From: an uncultured Gammaproteobacteria bacterium
Lineage (GTDB): Bacteria; Patescibacteriota; Patescibacteriia; Patescibacteriales; JAGXOH01
DNA: 61,219 nucleotides
NCBI GenBank assembly: GCA_964635515.1
Contig: CAZWNU010000003.1
Coordinates: 1-61,219, forward strand
Direction: 5' to 3'
In this document: piece after piece, positions 1 through 61,217 of the stretch
Layout of the letters: the number at the start of each line of letters is the position of its first letter
How positions within the stretch are numbered: position 1 is the stretch's first letter
Notes under the pieces: generated by a model
Told to the model about the DNA's origin: nothing
What the model saw: only the letters and a program-made list of their open reading frames with translations
Databases searched by the model: none
Position numbers and translations under genes: made by a program

Positions 1-73
1 GGGTAGCTCAGTTGGTTAGAGCGCGGCACTCATAACGCCGAGGTCGTGGGTTCAACCCCCACTCCAGCCACCA
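1..73 (+). tRNA. tRNA-Met(CAT), elongator type; about 4 nt of the 5' end cut off by the window edge; CCA encoded
   Basis: D-arm GCTCAGTTGGTTAGAGC, anticodon loop CT-CAT-AA at 29-35, T-arm GTGGG-TTCAACC-CCCAC, 3' end TCCAGCC-A-CCA. Resembles E. coli elongator tRNA-Met (CACTCATAA); Ile2 not fully excluded. Confidence 0.9.
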
Positions 74-595: not shown

Positions 596-1072
596 ATGTC
601 CAATCGTCACTTAGCTAGAACTATAGCAATGCAGTCTATTTTTTGTTGGGATTTTAATGGTGGACAGGAGCAGGATTGCCAAAAAATTGTTCAGAACAAT
701 TTTTCCAAGTTCGCTCCCAAGTTTAACGATGACGGCTTTGTTGTTTCTCTTGTAAAAGGAGTCTTGGATAACCTGGATCAGGTAGATAGCTACATCATTA
801 AACATGCCACTGAGTGGCCTCTGGAGCAGATTACCATTATAGATAGAAGTATTCTAAGAATAGGTGTTTATGAGTTGGTTATGGATGATGATGTCCCGGC
901 TAAAGTGGCTATAGACGAGGCTATAGAGATAGCAAAGGCCTTTGGCGGAGAATCCTCTGGTAAGTTTGTGAACGGGGTTCTGGGGGCTATTTTCAGGGAG
1001 TTACCTGAAGAAAAAAAAGGAGAGGAAAAGAAGCAGAGCCCGACAGAGAGTTCGGATAAACAGGGCCATTAA
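596..1072 (+). CDS. nusB: transcription antitermination factor NusB
   Basis: [44 protein letters not shown]. Confidence 0.96.
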
Positions 1073-1155
1073 TGATTAACTCTATATTACTGTCTTATCA
1101 GATTATTTCTAAAGAGAGTAAATAATTTAATGAGGTTGTAATATAGCCTAGAAAA

Positions 1156-1857
1156 ATGATTCAGGAAAAAGATTTTTCTAAGCTGGAAAAAAAGATCGGC
1201 TTTAACTTTAAAAATAAAGAGTTGTTACAACAAGCTTTGGTGCATCGATCCTATTTAAACGAGAATCCCAATTTTTCCTTAGGTAATAATGAGAGGTTAG
1301 AGTTCCTAGGTGATGCTGTTTTGGAGATTGTGGTTACTGAATACTTGTATTTTAATTTTCCGGAAAAGGAAGAAGGTGAGTTGACCAATTTTAGGGCTAG
1401 TTTAGTTAATACCCAGCTACTGTCAACAGTAGCCAAGGACTTGGGATTAGACGGATATCTTTATCTTTCCAAGGGAGAGGCCAAAGACAAAAATGAGAAA
1501 TCCAAAAAAAGTATTTTGGCTGATACCATAGAGGCTCTTACCGGAGCTGCTTATCTGGATCAAGGTAGAGAGGCGGCAGAGGTATTTGTAAAGAAACATA
1601 TACTTTCCCGTCTTGACCATATCTTAGAGAACAAATTATACCTTGACCCTAAGTCAAAGTTTCAGGAGAAATCCCAGGAAAAATATAGCATTACTCCCCA
1701 CTACAAAGTTTTAAAAGAGGAGGGTCCGGATCATGATAAAATTTTTGAGATCGGTCTCTATTTGGGTGATAGGTTGGTTTCTACTGGAACCGGCTCCTCT
1801 AAACAAGAAGCGCAAATAAAAGCGGCGGAAGAAGGAATTAAAAAAGAAAATTGGTAA
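1156..1857 (+). CDS. rnc: ribonuclease III
   Basis: NNERLEFLGDAVL signature, ADTIEAL acidic residues, C-terminal dsRBD (DPKSKFQE...GPDH...GSSKQEAQ). Confidence 0.98.
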   Translation: MIQEKDFSKLEKKIGFNFKNKELLQQALVHRSYLNENPNFSLGNNERLEFLGDAVLEIVVTEYLYFNFPEKEEGELTNFRASLVNTQLLSTVAKDLGLDGYLYLSKGEAKDKNEKSKKSILADTIEALTGAAYLDQGREAAEVFVKKHILSRLDHILENKLYLDPKSKFQEKSQEKYSITPHYKVLKEEGPDHDKIFEIGLYLGDRLVSTGTGSSKQEAQIKAAEEGIKKENW

Positions 1858-3113: not shown

Positions 3114-3178
3114 TTGAAAAGTCTTATAGTCTAGAAAATTAAGAATCCATACTTATAATTTTAAGATTGTGAGTGTGG

Positions 3179-6174
<2,996 letters not shown>

Positions 6175-6238
6175 CACACTCTTAGTTTTAAATTTATTTT
6201 TGGATCTTAACAAAAAACAAAAGAAGGAGGACTATAAA

Positions 6239-6538
6239 ATGACAGTAGAGAAGCATTTTTTTGATGACCTGGAAGCATCCAGGAAGTATGTGGAGTCATC
6301 CAATGAGGAGAAGTTTACCTTGGAAGTTGAACTTCCCAGAAAGCTTATATTGGAAATTCTTAAGGTCGCTATTAGAAGGGAGGTCGGATTAAAAAAGTTG
6401 TTTCAAAAAATGATCAAGATGGTCTTTGTTTTCGATGAGATTGAGCGTGTTGACAGCGGAGTCCGGATAGTTGTAAAACGATCCCCTGAAGAAGAGGGGG
6501 AGCGATTCGTTTTCTTCGAGAAAACAGGGGATGAATAA
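6239..6538 (+). CDS. hypothetical 99-aa protein in the 23S-5S spacer, possible ribbon-helix-helix fold
   Basis: Open frame (the ORF track starts at TTG 6200); ATG 6239 has AAGGAGG at 6224-6230; FTLEVELPRKLILEILKVAIRREVGLKKLFQKM resembles the RHH/CopG pattern. Confidence 0.7.
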   Translation: MTVEKHFFDDLEASRKYVESSNEEKFTLEVELPRKLILEILKVAIRREVGLKKLFQKMIKMVFVFDEIERVDSGVRIVVKRSPEEEGERFVFFEKTGDE

Positions 6539-6575
6539 AGTCAGTCAAGGCCAAAGCTCATCTGTTTAAAAACTT

Positions 6576-6619
6576 AAAGTTTAAAGGTAGATTAATTTTT
6601 TAAACTACCTTTAAACTTT
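6576..6619. repeat. perfect 15-bp inverted repeat between the spacer ORF and 5S
   Basis: AAAGTTTAAAGGTAG (6576-6590) / CTACCTTTAAACTTT (6605-6619). Confidence 0.85.
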
Positions 6620-6639
6620 ATCTTAGAAAGACACCATCG

Positions 6640-6756
6640 TTCTGGTGGTTCAAGCGAAAGGGCAACACCTGATCCCATACCGAACTCAGAAGTTAAGCCT
6701 TTCAGCGCCGATGGTACTTGGGGGTTTACCCCTGGGAGAGTAGGCCACCGCCAGAA
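6640..6756 (+). rRNA. rrf: 5S rRNA
   Basis: Helix I TTCTGGTGGT/ACCGCCAGAA; ACACCTGATCCCATACCGAACTCAGAAGTTAAGC; GCCGATGGTAC; GGGAGAGTAGG. Confidence 0.97.
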
Positions 6757-6952
6757 CAATGGTGTTTTTTTGTATTAATTTCACTTTATTTTTGAAAATT
6801 TATTAAGATCAACTGTTAACTCTTTTAATAAAGACATGAGAGTTGTGTTTTTTTTGATCAAAATTCATGTTAAACTTAGAGTATAAATACTAATAAACAG
6901 TTCTTAAATAGATTATTTCCTAGCAGTTTATTTAAGACCTGTTTGGTCAAAT

Positions 6953-8782
6953 ATGTGTGGAATAGTTGCTTATACCGGCACCAAGGAAGCTTTGCCAATT
7001 CTTTTGGACGGTTTAAAAAGACTGGAGTATCGGGGATATGATTCTGCCGGAATAGCCATATCCGATGATAGTAGTGAGGTTAAAAGCCTTAAATCTGTGG
7101 GCAAAATATCAAAATTGGAAGAGGGTCTCGGGGGTAAGCGATTTCAAGGTTGTTTGGGTATAGCTCATACCAGGTGGGCCACTCATGGTGTTCCTACTGA
7201 AAAAAACGCTCATCCTCACCGTGACTGTTCCGGTAAGATCTGGTTGGTGCACAACGGGATCATAGAAAATTTTCAAACCATTAAAGAGCAGTTACAGAAG
7301 GAGGGTCATAAGTTTCAGTCTGACACAGATTCCGAGGTTATGGTCCATTTGGTGGAAAAATTCTATCAAGGTGACCTGACAGAGGCCTTAAAACAGTCCT
7401 TGTCTTTAATTGAGGGTGCTTATAGTTTTGTGGTTATGCATCAAGATGAACCGGATAAGCTAGTGGTTGCTAAAAAGGGTAGCCCCTTAGTTTTAGGCTT
7501 GGAAGAAGACGGGGTTATAATTGCCTCAGATGTTACTGCTATTATAAGACACACCAGGAATGTGGTGTATTTGGAGGACAAGGAGATAGCTGCTGTAGAA
7601 GGGTCTGATTTTAAAATCTTTGATTGGAATAATAAAACCCAGTCTCGAGAGACGAAAAAAATTGATTGGAACCTGGAAGAATTAGAAAAAAAGGGTTATC
7701 CCCATTTCATGTTGAAAGAAATATTTGAACAACCCAACTCCATCAGAGAAAGCTTGAGGGGAAGATTGATTCAAGAAGAGGGCAGGGTTAAGCTGGGAGG
7801 ACTGGATCTTGTAGCAGACCAACTCCTTCCCTTAAATAATCTGGTCAATGTAGCTTGCGGAACTGCCTATTATGCCGGCCTGGTGGGAGAATGCATGTTG
7901 GAAGAGTATGCCGGAATTTCCACTAAGGCTGTTATCTCCTCAGAATTTCGTTATCGAAAGCAGGTTCTGAATAAAGATTCCGCTATTTTAGGTTTAAGTC
8001 AATCCGGGGAGACTGCCGACACCTTAGCGGTTATTAATGAGGCTAGAGAAAAAGATATTCTCAGTTTGGGTATAGTGAACACAGTTGGTTCAAGTATCGC
8101 TCGAGCCACCAAGGCTGGTGTGTATAATCATATTGGACCGGAAATAGCAGTAGCCTCGACCAAGGCGTTTACTTCTCAGCTTGTTATTTTGGCCCTACTA
8201 ACGGTTTACCTGGGCAGAATGAGAGACATGTCTTTGGCTATGGGAGAAAGAATTACCAAGGAAATAGAGTTATTACCCCAGAAGGCGGAAGAGGCTTTGA
8301 AAGAGGATGAGCGGATTAAGGTGGTTGCTCAGAAATATCATCAAGTTTCCGGCTTTGCTTTTTTGGGAAGAAAGTATAATTACCCTATAGCCTTGGAAGG
8401 AGCTTTAAAATTAAAAGAGATATCTTATATCCATTCCGAGGGTTTTGCCGGAGGGGAAATAAAACATGGCCCCCTAGCCTTGATAGATGAAAATTTCCCT
8501 TCTTTATTTGTAGTACCCCAGGATAGTGTTTACAAGAAAAATTTGAGTAATATCCAGGAGATAAAAGCAAGAGGGGGGCCGGTAATAGCTTTGGCCACTC
8601 AAGGTGATGAAGAGATAAAAAAGATAGTTGATGATGTTATATATATACCCAAAACTTTGGAAATGTTGACCCCTATTATCTCGGTCATTCCTCTGCAGCT
8701 CTTTGCTTATCATATGGCAACTTTAAACGGAACTGATGTGGACAAGCCCAGGAATCTGGCCAAATCGGTCACGGTGGAATAG
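6953..8782 (+). CDS. glmS: glutamine--fructose-6-phosphate aminotransferase
   Basis: N-terminal MCGIV, LEYRGYDSAG, HTRWATHG, HNGIIEN, SQSGETADT, VASTKAFT, PRNLAKSVTVE. Confidence 0.98.
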   Translation: MCGIVAYTGTKEALPILLDGLKRLEYRGYDSAGIAISDDSSEVKSLKSVGKISKLEEGLGGKRFQGCLGIAHTRWATHGVPTEKNAHPHRDCSGKIWLVHNGIIENFQTIKEQLQKEGHKFQSDTDSEVMVHLVEKFYQGDLTEALKQSLSLIEGAYSFVVMHQDEPDKLVVAKKGSPLVLGLEEDGVIIASDVTAIIRHTRNVVYLEDKEIAAVEGSDFKIFDWNNKTQSRETKKIDWNLEELEKKGYPHFMLKEIFEQPNSIRESLRGRLIQEEGRVKLGGLDLVADQLLPLNNLVNVACGTAYYAGLVGECMLEEYAGISTKAVISSEFRYRKQVLNKDSAILGLSQSGETADTLAVINEAREKDILSLGIVNTVGSSIARATKAGVYNHIGPEIAVASTKAFTSQLVILALLTVYLGRMRDMSLAMGERITKEIELLPQKAEEALKEDERIKVVAQKYHQVSGFAFLGRKYNYPIALEGALKLKEISYIHSEGFAGGEIKHGPLALIDENFPSLFVVPQDSVYKKNLSNIQEIKARGGPVIALATQGDEEIKKIVDDVIYIPKTLEMLTPIISVIPLQLFAYHMATLNGTDVDKPRNLAKSVTVE

Positions 8783-45160: not shown

Positions 45161-46204
45161 TTATTCGTAGAGTTCGTAGACGAGCGATTCCAGATATTTT
45201 TTCGTAGCCAGGTTGAAAATCGTGTCGGTCTGGAAAACCTGGGAAAGGAATTTGAAGTCTACTTCCCTTCTTTTGTATTGGGTGTCAAGCACATCCGTGA
45301 TTTTTTGTATTCCTCTATATGTCATTTTCCCAAGGGGTGGTCGGCAAGGCCCTACCGGTATTCCCAGCAGATTCATAATCGTTTTGACGGGCAGGGGGTT
45401 TCTGCTTTTGTTCAAAACTTTTCCATAAGAAGTTTCTTCTTCGGTTACGACGTTTACCAGGTCAAGCACTTCTCGGATTTCCTGATGGAAAGGATTTGGA
45501 AGATCTTCAAGGTGGGATTTTATCATGCATCTCAAGGGAAATGGGAAAACATTGGACATAACGGAAATGGCGCCGTCCGCCTTGATCTCCGGATCCAGCA
45601 TCAGTTCATTGGTCAAATGGTCGTCCCCGCTCAGTATAGATAGTTCCGGTCCGCACAATTCCCTGGTCTTTTTAATACCTTCCAGGTCTCCTGTAGCTAT
45701 CTTGACGCAGTTAATGTTGGAGAATTGTTGATGGAGAATGGCCAAGTGTGGAGGCAGAAGCTCGCATCCGGTTCGTCCCGGGATGATATAAGGAATGATT
45801 TCAATTTTCGGATAAGCGGATGCAATGGGGAGAATATATTCTTTCATGATTTCTCTTGAGCTGGGCCCATTGTAATAAGGGTCTACCAGTAATACCGCAT
45901 CCGCTCCGGCTTGGACCGCCATCTCGGTCAGGTCCATCGCCTCTAACAGATTGTTGCTTCCGGTTCCGGCCAGGCAGAGGCATCTGCCGTTCACCTTTTT
46001 TACTCCGAATTCAATGATTTTTTTGTGCTCCTCCGGAGATATGGTAGGACTCTCTCCGGTGGTGCCGACAAAGAGAATGCCATCCACCCATGAAGATAAT
46101 TGAAATTCAATCAGCTTTTCAAAATTGTCCCAGGCGATTTCCCCGTCTTTCCTAAAAGGGGTAACGATTGCGGTTATTAATCCTTGAATTTTTTTGGTCG
46201 TCAT
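45161..46204 (-). CDS. dapA: 4-hydroxy-tetrahydrodipicolinate synthase (DapA family)
   Basis: TAIVTPF, GTTGES, AGTGSN, PYYN, catalytic Tyr (PYIIPGRTG) and Schiff-base Lys (VKIATGD), LSGDD, NPLPVK; SD AAGGAGGT. Confidence 0.85.
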   Translation of the reverse strand: MTTKKIQGLITAIVTPFRKDGEIAWDNFEKLIEFQLSSWVDGILFVGTTGESPTISPEEHKKIIEFGVKKVNGRCLCLAGTGSNNLLEAMDLTEMAVQAGADAVLLVDPYYNGPSSREIMKEYILPIASAYPKIEIIPYIIPGRTGCELLPPHLAILHQQFSNINCVKIATGDLEGIKKTRELCGPELSILSGDDHLTNELMLDPEIKADGAISVMSNVFPFPLRCMIKSHLEDLPNPFHQEIREVLDLVNVVTEEETSYGKVLNKSRNPLPVKTIMNLLGIPVGPCRPPLGKMTYRGIQKITDVLDTQYKRREVDFKFLSQVFQTDTIFNLATKKYLESLVYELYE

Positions 46205-55453: not shown

Positions 55454-55525
55454 TACCGCCACGGGGAATCGAACCCCGGTCTCCAGGATGAAAACCTGGT
55501 GTCCTAACCACTAGACGATGGCGGC
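55454..55525 (-). tRNA. tRNA-Glu(TTC), CCA not encoded
   Basis: Minus strand GCCGCCATCGTCTAGTGGTTAGGACACCAGG-TT-TTC-AT-CCTGGAGACCGGGGTTCGATTCCCCGTGGCGGTA. Confidence 0.95.
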
Positions 55526-55713: not shown

Positions 55714-56187
55714 CTAGTGCCTCGCTTCCAATTTCGCGACATGGAAACCACAAATTAATTCATCCGCTTGTAAGGGGTGGGTAAATTTTAGGTTTTTGGC
55801 TCCCAGGCCCTTAAGTAGACGCCTTTCTTTCCTGTTGATATTCTCCAAGAATATTTCCAGTTGGCTTGGTTGGGTGTTTTCCAAGGTGCATTTGTGGAAA
55901 ATTAAGAAAAACAGGCCCGAGCTCTCATCAAAGATGACTTGTTTCAGGCCATAATAACTCTGCTGGTCGGGAGCCACACCCCAAGCTATATCCGGGCCGT
56001 TTTCTAACTTGGTCTTTCCCCAGGGCAACCCCCTTCCTCTTGTGAATGATTTTAGGAATTCTATTTCTCTTTGCCTTTCCCTCCCGTTCTCGGACAAGAG
56101 GCAGAAAATGATTTTTTTACTTCGAAATGATCCCAGTTTAGTAAATTCATTTTTAAAGGTTACCGATCTTTTGTTGCTAGGTTTCAT
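55714..56187 (-). CDS. hypothetical protein (157 aa, no family recognised)
   Basis: Open frame with SD GAGGAGG and its own downstream terminator. Confidence 0.65.
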   Translation of the reverse strand: MKPSNKRSVTFKNEFTKLGSFRSKKIIFCLLSENGRERQREIEFLKSFTRGRGLPWGKTKLENGPDIAWGVAPDQQSYYGLKQVIFDESSGLFFLIFHKCTLENTQPSQLEIFLENINRKERRLLKGLGAKNLKFTHPLQADELICGFHVAKLEARH

Positions 56188-60263: not shown

Positions 60264-60347
60264 GCGGATGTGGCGGAATTGGTAGACGCGCATGATTCAG
60301 GTTCATGTGGAGTTTTCTCTGTGCGGGTTCGAGTCCCGCCATCCGCA
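60264..60347 (+). tRNA. tRNA-Leu(CAG), CCA not encoded
   Basis: GCGGATG/CATCCGC acceptor stem, GGCGGAATTGGTAGACGC D-arm, CATGA-TT-CAG-GT-TCATG, long variable arm, GCGGGTTCGAGTCCCGC. Confidence 0.95.
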
Positions 60348-60425: not shown

Positions 60426-61217
60426 TTATTCTAAAAACTCAAAAGAAGAGATCATGTCTTGGCATCGGCTATGGCTTCCGGAGCAGTTTATTATATAGGC
60501 ATAACCGTTTTTGAAGGCATATAATTTTGTCTCGGGCACTTCCTCCAGGGCATGGTTAGTCGTATCTTCTGTCACGCGAAGGTAACTTGCTTTAAAAGAG
60601 TTTTCCGCTTCCACCACATTTTTTTCTAATTCTAATTCCGAGATATTTTCTTGCTCGTTCAAGCTATTTATTCTCAGGTCATAACCCACTTGATCTTGGC
60701 CAACAAAGATTGAAGTAGAAACTTCTCCTTCTATTGCCAAGGAGACAGAGGCCATGGGGTCCTCCTCTTCCATTAAGTCCGAGTCTCCGGGAAGGTCTAT
60801 TTTAAATCCATAATCTTCATTTTCGTAAGTTTTGTGTCCACTCTCTTCTTCAGTCAATTCAAAATAGTCTATTTCTACCTCACCCTCATCAGAAACAGTG
60901 AATCCGGCTTCTGCTTGAAGGGCGATGTGTCCATCTTCATAGTCTACCAGGACAGAGTTGTCACTCAGGAATTCGATATTAGTGACAAAGAAATTTCCGC
61001 CCAAGACCGCTTCCTCAGGAGATAACTCAGAGATATTGTCTCTGATGTATTGTTCAGCCGCTTCCTGACTGTCCAATTCTTCCTCCTCTTCTTCTATTAA
61101 GTCAAAATAGTCTATTTCTACCTCACCCTCATCAGAAACAGTGAATCCGGCTTCTGCTTGAAGGGCGATGTGTCCATCTTCATAGTCTACCAGGACAGAG
61201 TTGTCACTCAGGAATTC
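60426..61217 (-). CDS. acidic, probably exported, protein with tandem 81-aa domains and PsbP-like C-terminus; 5' end lies beyond the window
   Basis: The frame is open from 61217 to the stop at 60426, so the TTG 61076 start is not the real start; repeated ..VDYEDGHIALQAEAGFTV..; YENEDYGFKIDLP; ends ISSFEFLE. Confidence 0.75.
   Translation of the reverse strand, partial: EFLSDNSVLVDYEDGHIALQAEAGFTVSDEGEVEIDYFDLIEEEEEELDSQEAAEQYIRDNISELSPEEAVLGGNFFVTNIEFLSDNSVLVDYEDGHIALQAEAGFTVSDEGEVEIDYFELTEEESGHKTYENEDYGFKIDLPGDSDLMEEEDPMASVSLAIEGEVSTSIFVGQDQVGYDLRINSLNEQENISELELEKNVVEAENSFKASYLRVTEDTTNHALEEVPETKLYAFKNGYAYIINCSGSHSRCQDMISSFEFLE

Follow-up and report, generated by a model that had tools for sequence, protein, structure and literature searches.

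Between the 23S and 5S ribosomal RNA (rRNA) genes of a soda-lake bacterium of the Patescibacteria (Candidate Phyla Radiation, CPR) lies an open reading frame (ORF) of 99 codons behind a perfect Shine-Dalgarno (SD) sequence. It is located on contig CAZWNU010000003.1, of which positions 1 to 61,219, in nucleotides (nt), were analysed as a whole and are referred to here as the window. We read this spacer ORF as an accessory gene that is restricted to its lineage, evolves fast, encodes a small cytoplasmic α/β protein and lies inside the 23S-5S transcription unit, and assign a probability of roughly 0.55 to this statement as a whole. An earlier sequence-only reading of the window had pointed to a protein-coding gene with a strong SD on the rRNA strand of the spacer, and on this point it is borne out by the features listed below. 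The spacer, bounded by rRNA genes placed with Rfam, measures 465 nt, and a mechanical ORF list also holds a longer, TTG-started version of the ORF (112 amino acids (aa), from 6200).

3179-6175, + strand: 23S rRNA gene (Rfam RF02541, 2601 bits, full model, model positions 1-2925)
6224-6230, + strand: Shine-Dalgarno AAGGAGG, read from the sequence, 8 nt (ACTATAAA) ahead of ATG 6239
6239-6538, + strand: spacer ORF (ATG 6239, TAA 6536-6538), 99 codons, 11.8 kDa, pI 5.4, supported by sequence, codon usage and a homologue
6641-6756, + strand: 5S rRNA gene (Rfam RF00001, 100.5 bits)

The spacer ORF is very probably a real gene, given its length, its host-like codon usage, the SD at 8 nt and a positional homologue in a second species. 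Of 5000 shuffles of the spacer that preserved its dinucleotides, 69 contained an ORF of 99 aa or longer and 23 an ORF of 112 aa or longer (0.5-1.4%). The in-frame codon log-likelihood of the ORF is 0.308 per codon, compared with a mean of 0.303 (sd 0.072) for real window genes; its remaining five frames are all negative, and 1.7% of long stop-free off-frame stretches reach its score. An SD core of at least 4 nt at a usable distance is missing in 49 of the 54 predicted window genes, and an SD of at least 6 nt is present in four of the 54. SD usage in this SD-poor window is bimodal, with four strong, near-perfect SDs (AGGAGG or AAGGAGGT) standing before 6239(+), 46204(−), 56187(−) and 61076(−). 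Besides the spacer ORF, the genes behind them are:

45161-46204, − strand: DHDPS-family gene
55714-56187, − strand: orphan ORF, no Pfam matches
60426-61076, − strand: orphan ORF, no Pfam matches

The homologue, which supplies the decisive evidence, was found via GlmS relatives of 70-77% identity, which were examined one by one. On contig L165 (GlmS 73% identical) the 23S-5S spacer is 632 nt long and contains an ORF of 114 aa behind AAGGAGG, with a leader of 150 nt. Its product, P0123 (13.4 kDa, pI 5.6), gives an ungapped alignment of 67 aa with the window protein (30% identity, 57% positives, pairwise E 2e-7), and both share an MT start and the motifs LE..KVA and L..LF. Around the two ORFs, the spacer DNA of the window and that of L165 cannot be aligned, so similarity has been kept at the protein level. 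Seven contigs carry the 114-aa ORF (L165 and six more, from JGI, ENA and an NCBI metagenome-assembled genome (MAG)), and wherever a contig extends into the flanking rRNA genes, the ORF is found between 23S and 5S. AAGGAGG stands ahead of it in L165 and in L169-L173, the SD being kept in every leader read despite variation in the leader. The sequence-only reading had proposed to look for homologues in related 23S-5S spacers, and this one positional homologue with a conserved SD, in one further species, answers that proposal by a narrow margin. L165 also carries a LAGLIDADG endonuclease ORF at 630-1070, inside the 3′ part of its 23S and presumably in an intron; the 23S of the window has no insertion of this kind.

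Beyond these two species the searches returned next to nothing. When GTDB genomes and JGI metagenomes were scanned with GlmS as the anchor, no relative exceeded 61% identity, and just two distant loci there showed 23S-5S-glmS synteny. In a word-indexed search of 5.8 billion proteins the window protein matched itself alone, an exhaustive phmmer search of 1.84 billion representatives gave just the window protein and an 893-aa polyubiquitin-like protein (P0002), the two-member profile found no further member among the 5.8 billion proteins and none among viral contigs, and tblastn against phage and plasmid records gave nothing meaningful. The P0002 match (E 6.8e-9), which would suggest a ubiquitin-like β-grasp, was rejected, being the sum of seven weak repeats with one repeat at 25 bits, and the repeats cannot be matched in register with P0123. 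In these searches the orphan family comprises two clusters, tiny and patchy. Seven related species with 23S-5S(-glmS) synteny served for comparison, and their spacers, of 74-255 nt, lack the ORF:

L180: ORF-less spacer, 74 nt
L176: ORF-less spacer, 145 nt
L083: ORF-less spacer, 148 nt
L080: ORF-less spacer, 157 nt
L072: ORF-less spacer, 246 nt
L178/L179: ORF-less spacer, 247 nt
L166/L167: ORF-less spacer, 255 nt

A rough neighbour-joining tree of GlmS places the two species that carry the ORF in different subclades, each beside ORF-less neighbours. Because close relatives lack the ORF, the gene is accessory and dispensable.

The join from 23S through the ORF to 5S is not chimeric, a danger that the sequence-only reading had raised, because independent assemblies are identical and the spacer has the depth of the single-copy flank. 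An identical spacer is found in contigs of six public DNA runs (2012-2022), in one ENA assembly and in the window, and six soda-lake or salt-lake metagenome runs hold 98-100% of the sampled words of the spacer. Independent contigs that run from 23S through the spacer and 5S into glmS without a difference include X3 (16.6 kb), X1 (1031 nt), X6 (787 nt) and ENA L001 (3660 nt). Spacer depth versus that of the single-copy glmS flank is 5.7 versus 5.6 and 12.1 versus 10.2, and in X3 a single 16.6-kb contig has a depth of 18.9.

The assembly graphs of runs X2 and X4 also contain a bubble, with a 504-nt path identical to the window (depth 3.1 and 12.1, respectively) and a 111-nt path (depth 2.5 and 5.8) that lacks the following segment:

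6205-6626, + strand: variable segment comprising leader, SD, ORF and hairpin, replaced by 29 nt in a co-occurring close lineage

The short path links 6204 to 6627 via 29 unrelated nt, ATTTCAGGTTTTAATTTACCTGAATTAAA, with two mismatches in 6153-6204. The replacement forms a 7-bp hairpin of its own, and the spacer of the ORF-less allele measures 72 nt. In X4 the downstream glmS contig has a depth of 10.2, near that of the ORF allele by itself, so that the short allele most likely comes from a separate, very close lineage that co-occurs with the host. Both edges of the variable segment show ATCTTA (6204-6209 and 6620-6625).

How the ORF is transcribed can be approached through the signals and structures around it:

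2942-2969, + strand: best sigma-70-like promoter candidate of the 23S-ORF-5S unit, TTGACA-16-TATAGT, 11/12 consensus matches, by consensus match only
3146-3178, + strand: 5′ strand (leader side) of the 23S processing stem, from a ViennaRNA fold of leader plus trailer
6176-6204, + strand: 3′ strand of the 23S processing stem, pairing with 3146-3178; the last part, up to 6204, that the ORF-less allele also has
6575-6620, + strand: AU-rich hairpin of 16 perfect pairs (6575-6590 / 6605-6620) plus 4 inner pairs, from fold and sequence
6632-6640, + strand: 5′ flank extending 5S helix I; CACCATCGTTCTGGTG (6632-6647) pairs with CGCCAGAACAATGGTG (6749-6764)
6749-6771, + strand: terminator-like end of the unit, extended 5S helix I followed by T7, the sole + strand terminator-like site downstream of the 23S gene

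The promoter candidate begins just past the stop of a PilT-like ATPase gene. Between 23S and the ORF a consensus scan of the + strand gave no terminator-like site, in agreement with the sequence-only reading, and no promoter-like site either, both in the window and in L165. With neither kind of signal between it and 23S, the ORF is probably co-transcribed with the rRNA; the stem formed by the 23S flanks, the NusB and RNase III genes upstream and the position of the sole terminator-like site behind 5S also speak for its place inside the rRNA unit. From the end of 23S to the ATG there are 63 nt, and roughly half of these belong to the processing stem: in the fold of leader plus trailer, 3146-3186 pairs near-continuously with 6166-6204, forming a stem of ~40 bp that stops 20 nt ahead of the SD. 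A stem between 23S leader and trailer is the classical RNase III substrate for 23S release. The minimum free energy fold also hinted that the 23S leader (3121-3132) might mask the SD and AUG (6229-6243), which we rejected, the duplex energy being no better than that of shuffles or random genomic windows (p ~0.1-0.3).

On its other side the ORF is followed by the AU-rich hairpin. The sequence-only reading had described it as a perfect 15-bp hairpin; the hairpin stands, its length has to be corrected to 16 perfect and 4 inner pairs. The 110-nt stretch that includes it (6536-6645) folds at −26.6 kcal/mol (z = −4.55), and none of 200 shuffles folds as well. No T-run lies behind it, and it ends 20 nt ahead of 5S. 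Hairpins beside 5S also occur in ORF-less relatives and in the ORF-less allele, ending ~20 nt upstream of 5S in four lineages. Because of these equivalents, the hairpin is probably a clade-wide element of pre-5S processing or stability rather than one specific to the ORF, and it is probably not a terminator or operator of the ORF itself. The ORF cassette thus sits exactly between two rRNA processing structures, the 23S stem and the pre-5S hairpin. An Rfam scan of the spacer at E<=1 returned just sub-threshold small RNA and microRNA-hairpin noise.

Among 179 loci of related Patescibacteria, ten contain a palindrome, AAAACTTTT(N1-10)AAAAGTTTT, that is confined to positions adjacent to 5S and is probably a conserved processing hairpin of the 5S precursor:

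L083 5518-5540; L165 2024-2045; L168 104-127 and 232-257; L169-L173: palindrome AAAACTTTT..AAAAGTTTT, upstream of 5S
L166 1531-1552; L167 455-476: palindrome AAAACTTTT..AAAAGTTTT, downstream of 5S

In L168 (GlmS 74%) the region upstream of 5S (1-278) contains two tandem units of ~125 nt, each with a GC-containing hairpin and AAAACTTTT..AAAAGTTTT; this contig stops before any ORF could be seen. In the window, L165 (2176-2197), L168, L083 and L180, flanking sequence adds 8-9 bp to helix I of 5S, and a T-run comes next. As the extended helix precedes a T-run, the 5S precursor stem would double as the intrinsic terminator of the operon.

Taken together, transcription would start from the rRNA promoter near 2942 and run through 23S, the ORF and 5S to the terminator formed by the 5S helix and T7. 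RNase III, encoded just upstream, would cut the predicted 23S stem (3146-3186 / 6166-6204), and the remaining RNA would begin ~25-40 nt ahead of the SD. Ribosomes would then be drawn by the A-rich leader together with the near-perfect SD, with the protein being made in step with rRNA synthesis, and the 20-bp hairpin 20 nt before 5S may act as a pre-5S processing site that, once cleaved, caps the 3′ end of the message. The message would be a by-product of pre-rRNA processing that is translated via its strong SD.

What the protein does is harder to judge. Its 99 residues, with the stretch MTVEKHFFDDLEASRK..., were compared with Pfam by hmmscan at E<=10 and with the PADLOC anti-phage defence profiles; like P0123, it matched no family in either. 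In single-sequence AlphaFold models of both proteins, a helix at the N terminus is followed by a central pair of helices and by a β-hairpin at the C terminus. For the window protein the predicted order is α-β-α-α-β-β, with a short strand (E25-30) preceding the helix pair (H34-47, H51-58) at a predicted local distance difference test score (pLDDT) of ~58-67; the homologue, at pLDDT 47, has a helix at 27-30 in place of the strand. The order α-β-α-α-β-β is the canonical one of winged-helix domains. The predicted topology fits a winged helix, such as the N-terminal domain of Fur, and a ribbon-helix-helix (RHH) protein with extensions equally well. Profile A1, built from the two sequences, gave five Fur domains and one Fur fusion chain as its only sub-threshold matches in the PDB, and the NCBIfam Fur model reached the window protein at a likewise sub-threshold E of 0.14; however, the E values of the PDB matches (0.04-0.2) are not significant, Foldseek gave no winged-helix match at E<=0.001, and hidden Markov model alignment and topology mapping point to different helices as the recognition helix. 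Residues 41-60 carry a net charge of +6 in the window protein and +4 in the homologue and form the sole basic patch of two otherwise acidic proteins. With low confidence, the models suggest a small α/β protein with a basic pair of helices resembling a helix-turn-helix (HTH). Nucleic-acid binding is the likeliest activity, yet itself doubtful: as this pair is the only basic patch of an acidic protein, binding might run through its HTH-like residues 34-60 and act on rRNA maturation or on DNA, and of all steps proposed here this one is the most tentative.

Several results weigh against the reading as a whole. RNA runs holding the spacer region were searched for and none was found. The window protein has no family assignment past any threshold in Pfam, PHROGs, NCBIfam, PADLOC or the PDB, its AlphaFold confidence is low (pLDDT 58, and 47 for the homologue), and Foldseek against the PDB found nothing at E<=0.001 (best E 0.34; the scattered matches to uS8, HflX and Alba were treated as noise). 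Its overall acidic charge argues against a generic nucleic-acid binder. L165 has a 12-bp, GC-containing, terminator-like hairpin between ORF and 5S, which, short of read-through or a role in processing, would uncouple 5S. The known members of the family number two, and their scattered occurrence on the GlmS tree could reflect repeated gain just as well as repeated loss. Within the L165 species a single site of the ORF varies (one change in 345 nt), which leaves too little polymorphism to test for selection.

Among the alternatives, the sequence-only reading had suggested a dimeric DNA binder of the RHH type (CopG, MetJ, Arc), which would feed back on the rRNA promoter or on the hairpin repeat, or ride along as an antitoxin-like hitch-hiker. 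The protein does resemble these repressors and antitoxins in its small size and in the β-α-turn-α pattern of residues 25-60, where FTLEVELP / RKLILEILKVAIRRE / VGL / KKLFQKMIKM shows the appropriate spacing, the AlphaFold strand and helices of the window protein coincide with it, and KG-LSLENLFRM of the homologue recalls the G-x-S turn of RHH proteins. The comparisons made here do not support the assignment, however, and we consider it improbable. No RHH profile (RHH_1, RHH_3, CopG and related models) or other profile supports it in Pfam for either protein, and hhalign of profile A1 against an eight-member RHH alignment gave a probability of 0.3%, a crude test because the RHH alignment was typed by hand. 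The model of the homologue replaces the strand by a helix, and at the outward (alternate) positions of the putative strand, where RHH proteins have polar or basic side chains that contact DNA, the window protein has acidic T/E/E and P0123 has N/S/V, without conservation. The window protein further differs in its extra N-terminal helix and C-terminal β-hairpin, a partner toxin gene is absent, and the supposed repeat is of the hairpin type that ORF-less relatives also have. An independent promoter is about as improbable: in that case the gene would be real but outside the coding output of the rRNA transcript, expressed from a weak promoter of its own, or else the spacer RNA would be degraded and marginally translated. 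Promoters in AT-rich leaders are often missed by consensus scans, and the 150-nt leader of L165 together with the terminator-like hairpin behind its ORF would suit such an arrangement; yet the window offers just 63 nt from 23S to the ATG, about half of it processing stem, and neither species has a promoter-like site on the + strand there.

A selfish, site-specific insertion into the 23S-5S spacer, comparable to the free-standing homing-endonuclease genes of CPR bacteria and gained independently in two lineages, is unlikely, if the least unlikely of these alternatives. Presence and absence do vary between subclades, within subclade A (L165 with the ORF, L180 without) and between co-occurring near-identical lineages; the ORF always lies between the same two processing stems, ATCTTA marks both edges of the variable segment, L165 carries a LAGLIDADG ORF in its 23S, and homing endonucleases between 23S and 5S have been reported in CPR (bioRxiv 10.1101/2020.03.05.979740). 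Against this, neither Pfam nor PHROGs gave a match, there is no nuclease, integrase or transposase motif, and further copies are absent from the rest of the window, from 182 loci and from phages, plasmids and viral contigs. In particular, no Pfam, PHROG or NCBIfam match to LAGLIDADG, GIY-YIG, HNH or PD-(D/E)xK endonucleases was obtained for the spacer ORF, with the LAGLIDADG ORF of L165 as positive control (detected at E 2.7e-13). The two copies are far more diverged (30% identity) than the host proteins (73%), the opposite of what recent transfer predicts, their codon usage is host-like in the window, and the empty allele is not a clean empty site but has 29 unrelated nt in the place of the segment. 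Least probable of all is a chance or decaying ORF without function. It would account for an orphan that has no detectable domain, is absent from most relatives and does not allow dN/dS to be measured, but length, host codon usage and a perfect SD are jointly improbable by chance, and an intact homologous ORF with conserved SD and MT start persists where the spacer DNA can no longer be aligned. A lineage-restricted accessory gene within the rRNA unit remains the reading that we prefer.

Protein genes in CPR rRNA spacers are not new in themselves. Lui et al. (bioRxiv 10.1101/2020.03.05.979740) described circularised CPR genomes in which protein genes on the rRNA strand, often those of homing endonucleases, sometimes lie between 23S and 5S, and the present locus belongs to this class by description: it comes from the same phylum, has a same-strand gene between 23S and 5S, and its 16S is unlinked, an Rfam scan having found no 16S rRNA gene within the window. 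Whereas the genes of Lui et al. are often homing endonucleases with gaps of 300-500 bp, the window ORF has no nuclease signature, follows 23S after 63 nt, has a perfect SD and is one of two members of an orphan family, the other being its positional homologue.

The proteins of 23S intervening sequences (PF05635; Leptospira, Coxiella) are encoded inside 23S helices, fold as four-helix bundles and are carried on pre-rRNA, from which the sequences are excised by RNase III. The window ORF would resemble them as a small ORF carried on pre-rRNA and cut out of it by RNase III. It differs in its location in the 23S-5S spacer, downstream of a complete 23S model and not inside a helix, in its predicted α/β fold and in having no PF05635 match.

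A third parallel concerns translation. In Flavobacterium johnsoniae, rpsU (encoding bS21) is a lone strong-SD gene in an SD-blind lineage (PMC13000453, PMC7797042), and the spacer ORF likewise stands out by a near-perfect SD where ~90% of window genes have none. As an analogy this is suggestive, although phylum and protein are different, three other window genes also have strong SDs and 16S lies outside the window. Carried further, a strong SD might favour 30S subunits with an exposed anti-SD (immature or bS21-free), as described for rpsU of Flavobacteria, and the protein might be a sensor or effector of ribosome biogenesis that is released by RNase III and feeds back on rRNA processing or transcription; this, or else a nuclease-free selfish cassette that homes to the 23S-5S spacer, we regard as highly speculative and very unlikely.

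The surroundings of the unit are summarized as follows:

596-1072: NusB gene, upstream of 23S
1156-1857: RNase III gene, upstream of 23S, 1.3 kb away
1874-2923: PilT-like ATPase gene, upstream of 23S
6953-8782: GlmS gene, downstream of 5S, where a CofD-like gene is also found

The best matches of GlmS (~60% identity) are among Patescibacteria/CPR MAGs. The order NusB - RNase III - 23S - 5S - glmS recurs in relatives L176 and L178, the NusB/RNase III pair standing directly upstream of that unit in all three (window 596-1857, L176 594-1813, L178 1-1076). Judged from these loci, genes predicted for rRNA antitermination and processing are in conserved synteny with their substrate operon. Rfam placed four tRNA genes in the window (1-70, 159-231, 55454-55525(−) and 60264-60347); two of them stand at its start, upstream of nusB, the first being truncated by the window edge. 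In L163 (~470-760) and L164 (~320-610), several tandem AT-rich units of ~40 nt (…CACTTATTTTACTTAATTTACTTTTTATACTTATTTCCCC…) lie upstream of a malic-enzyme gene, in a relative without the rRNA synteny.

Should the spacer ORF be translated off the rRNA precursor, bacteria would offer a clear example of a protein made from a side product of rRNA maturation, and the dosage of this protein would be tied to ribosome synthesis in a phylum, the CPR, with unusual ribosomes and rRNA operons. Even if it is just a dispensable hitch-hiker, the 23S-5S spacer of this clade would tolerate the gain and loss of coding DNA, and such ORFs would not be mere annotation noise. The perfect SD, set against an SD-poor genome, may in addition provide a handle on translation start in uncultured CPR bacteria.

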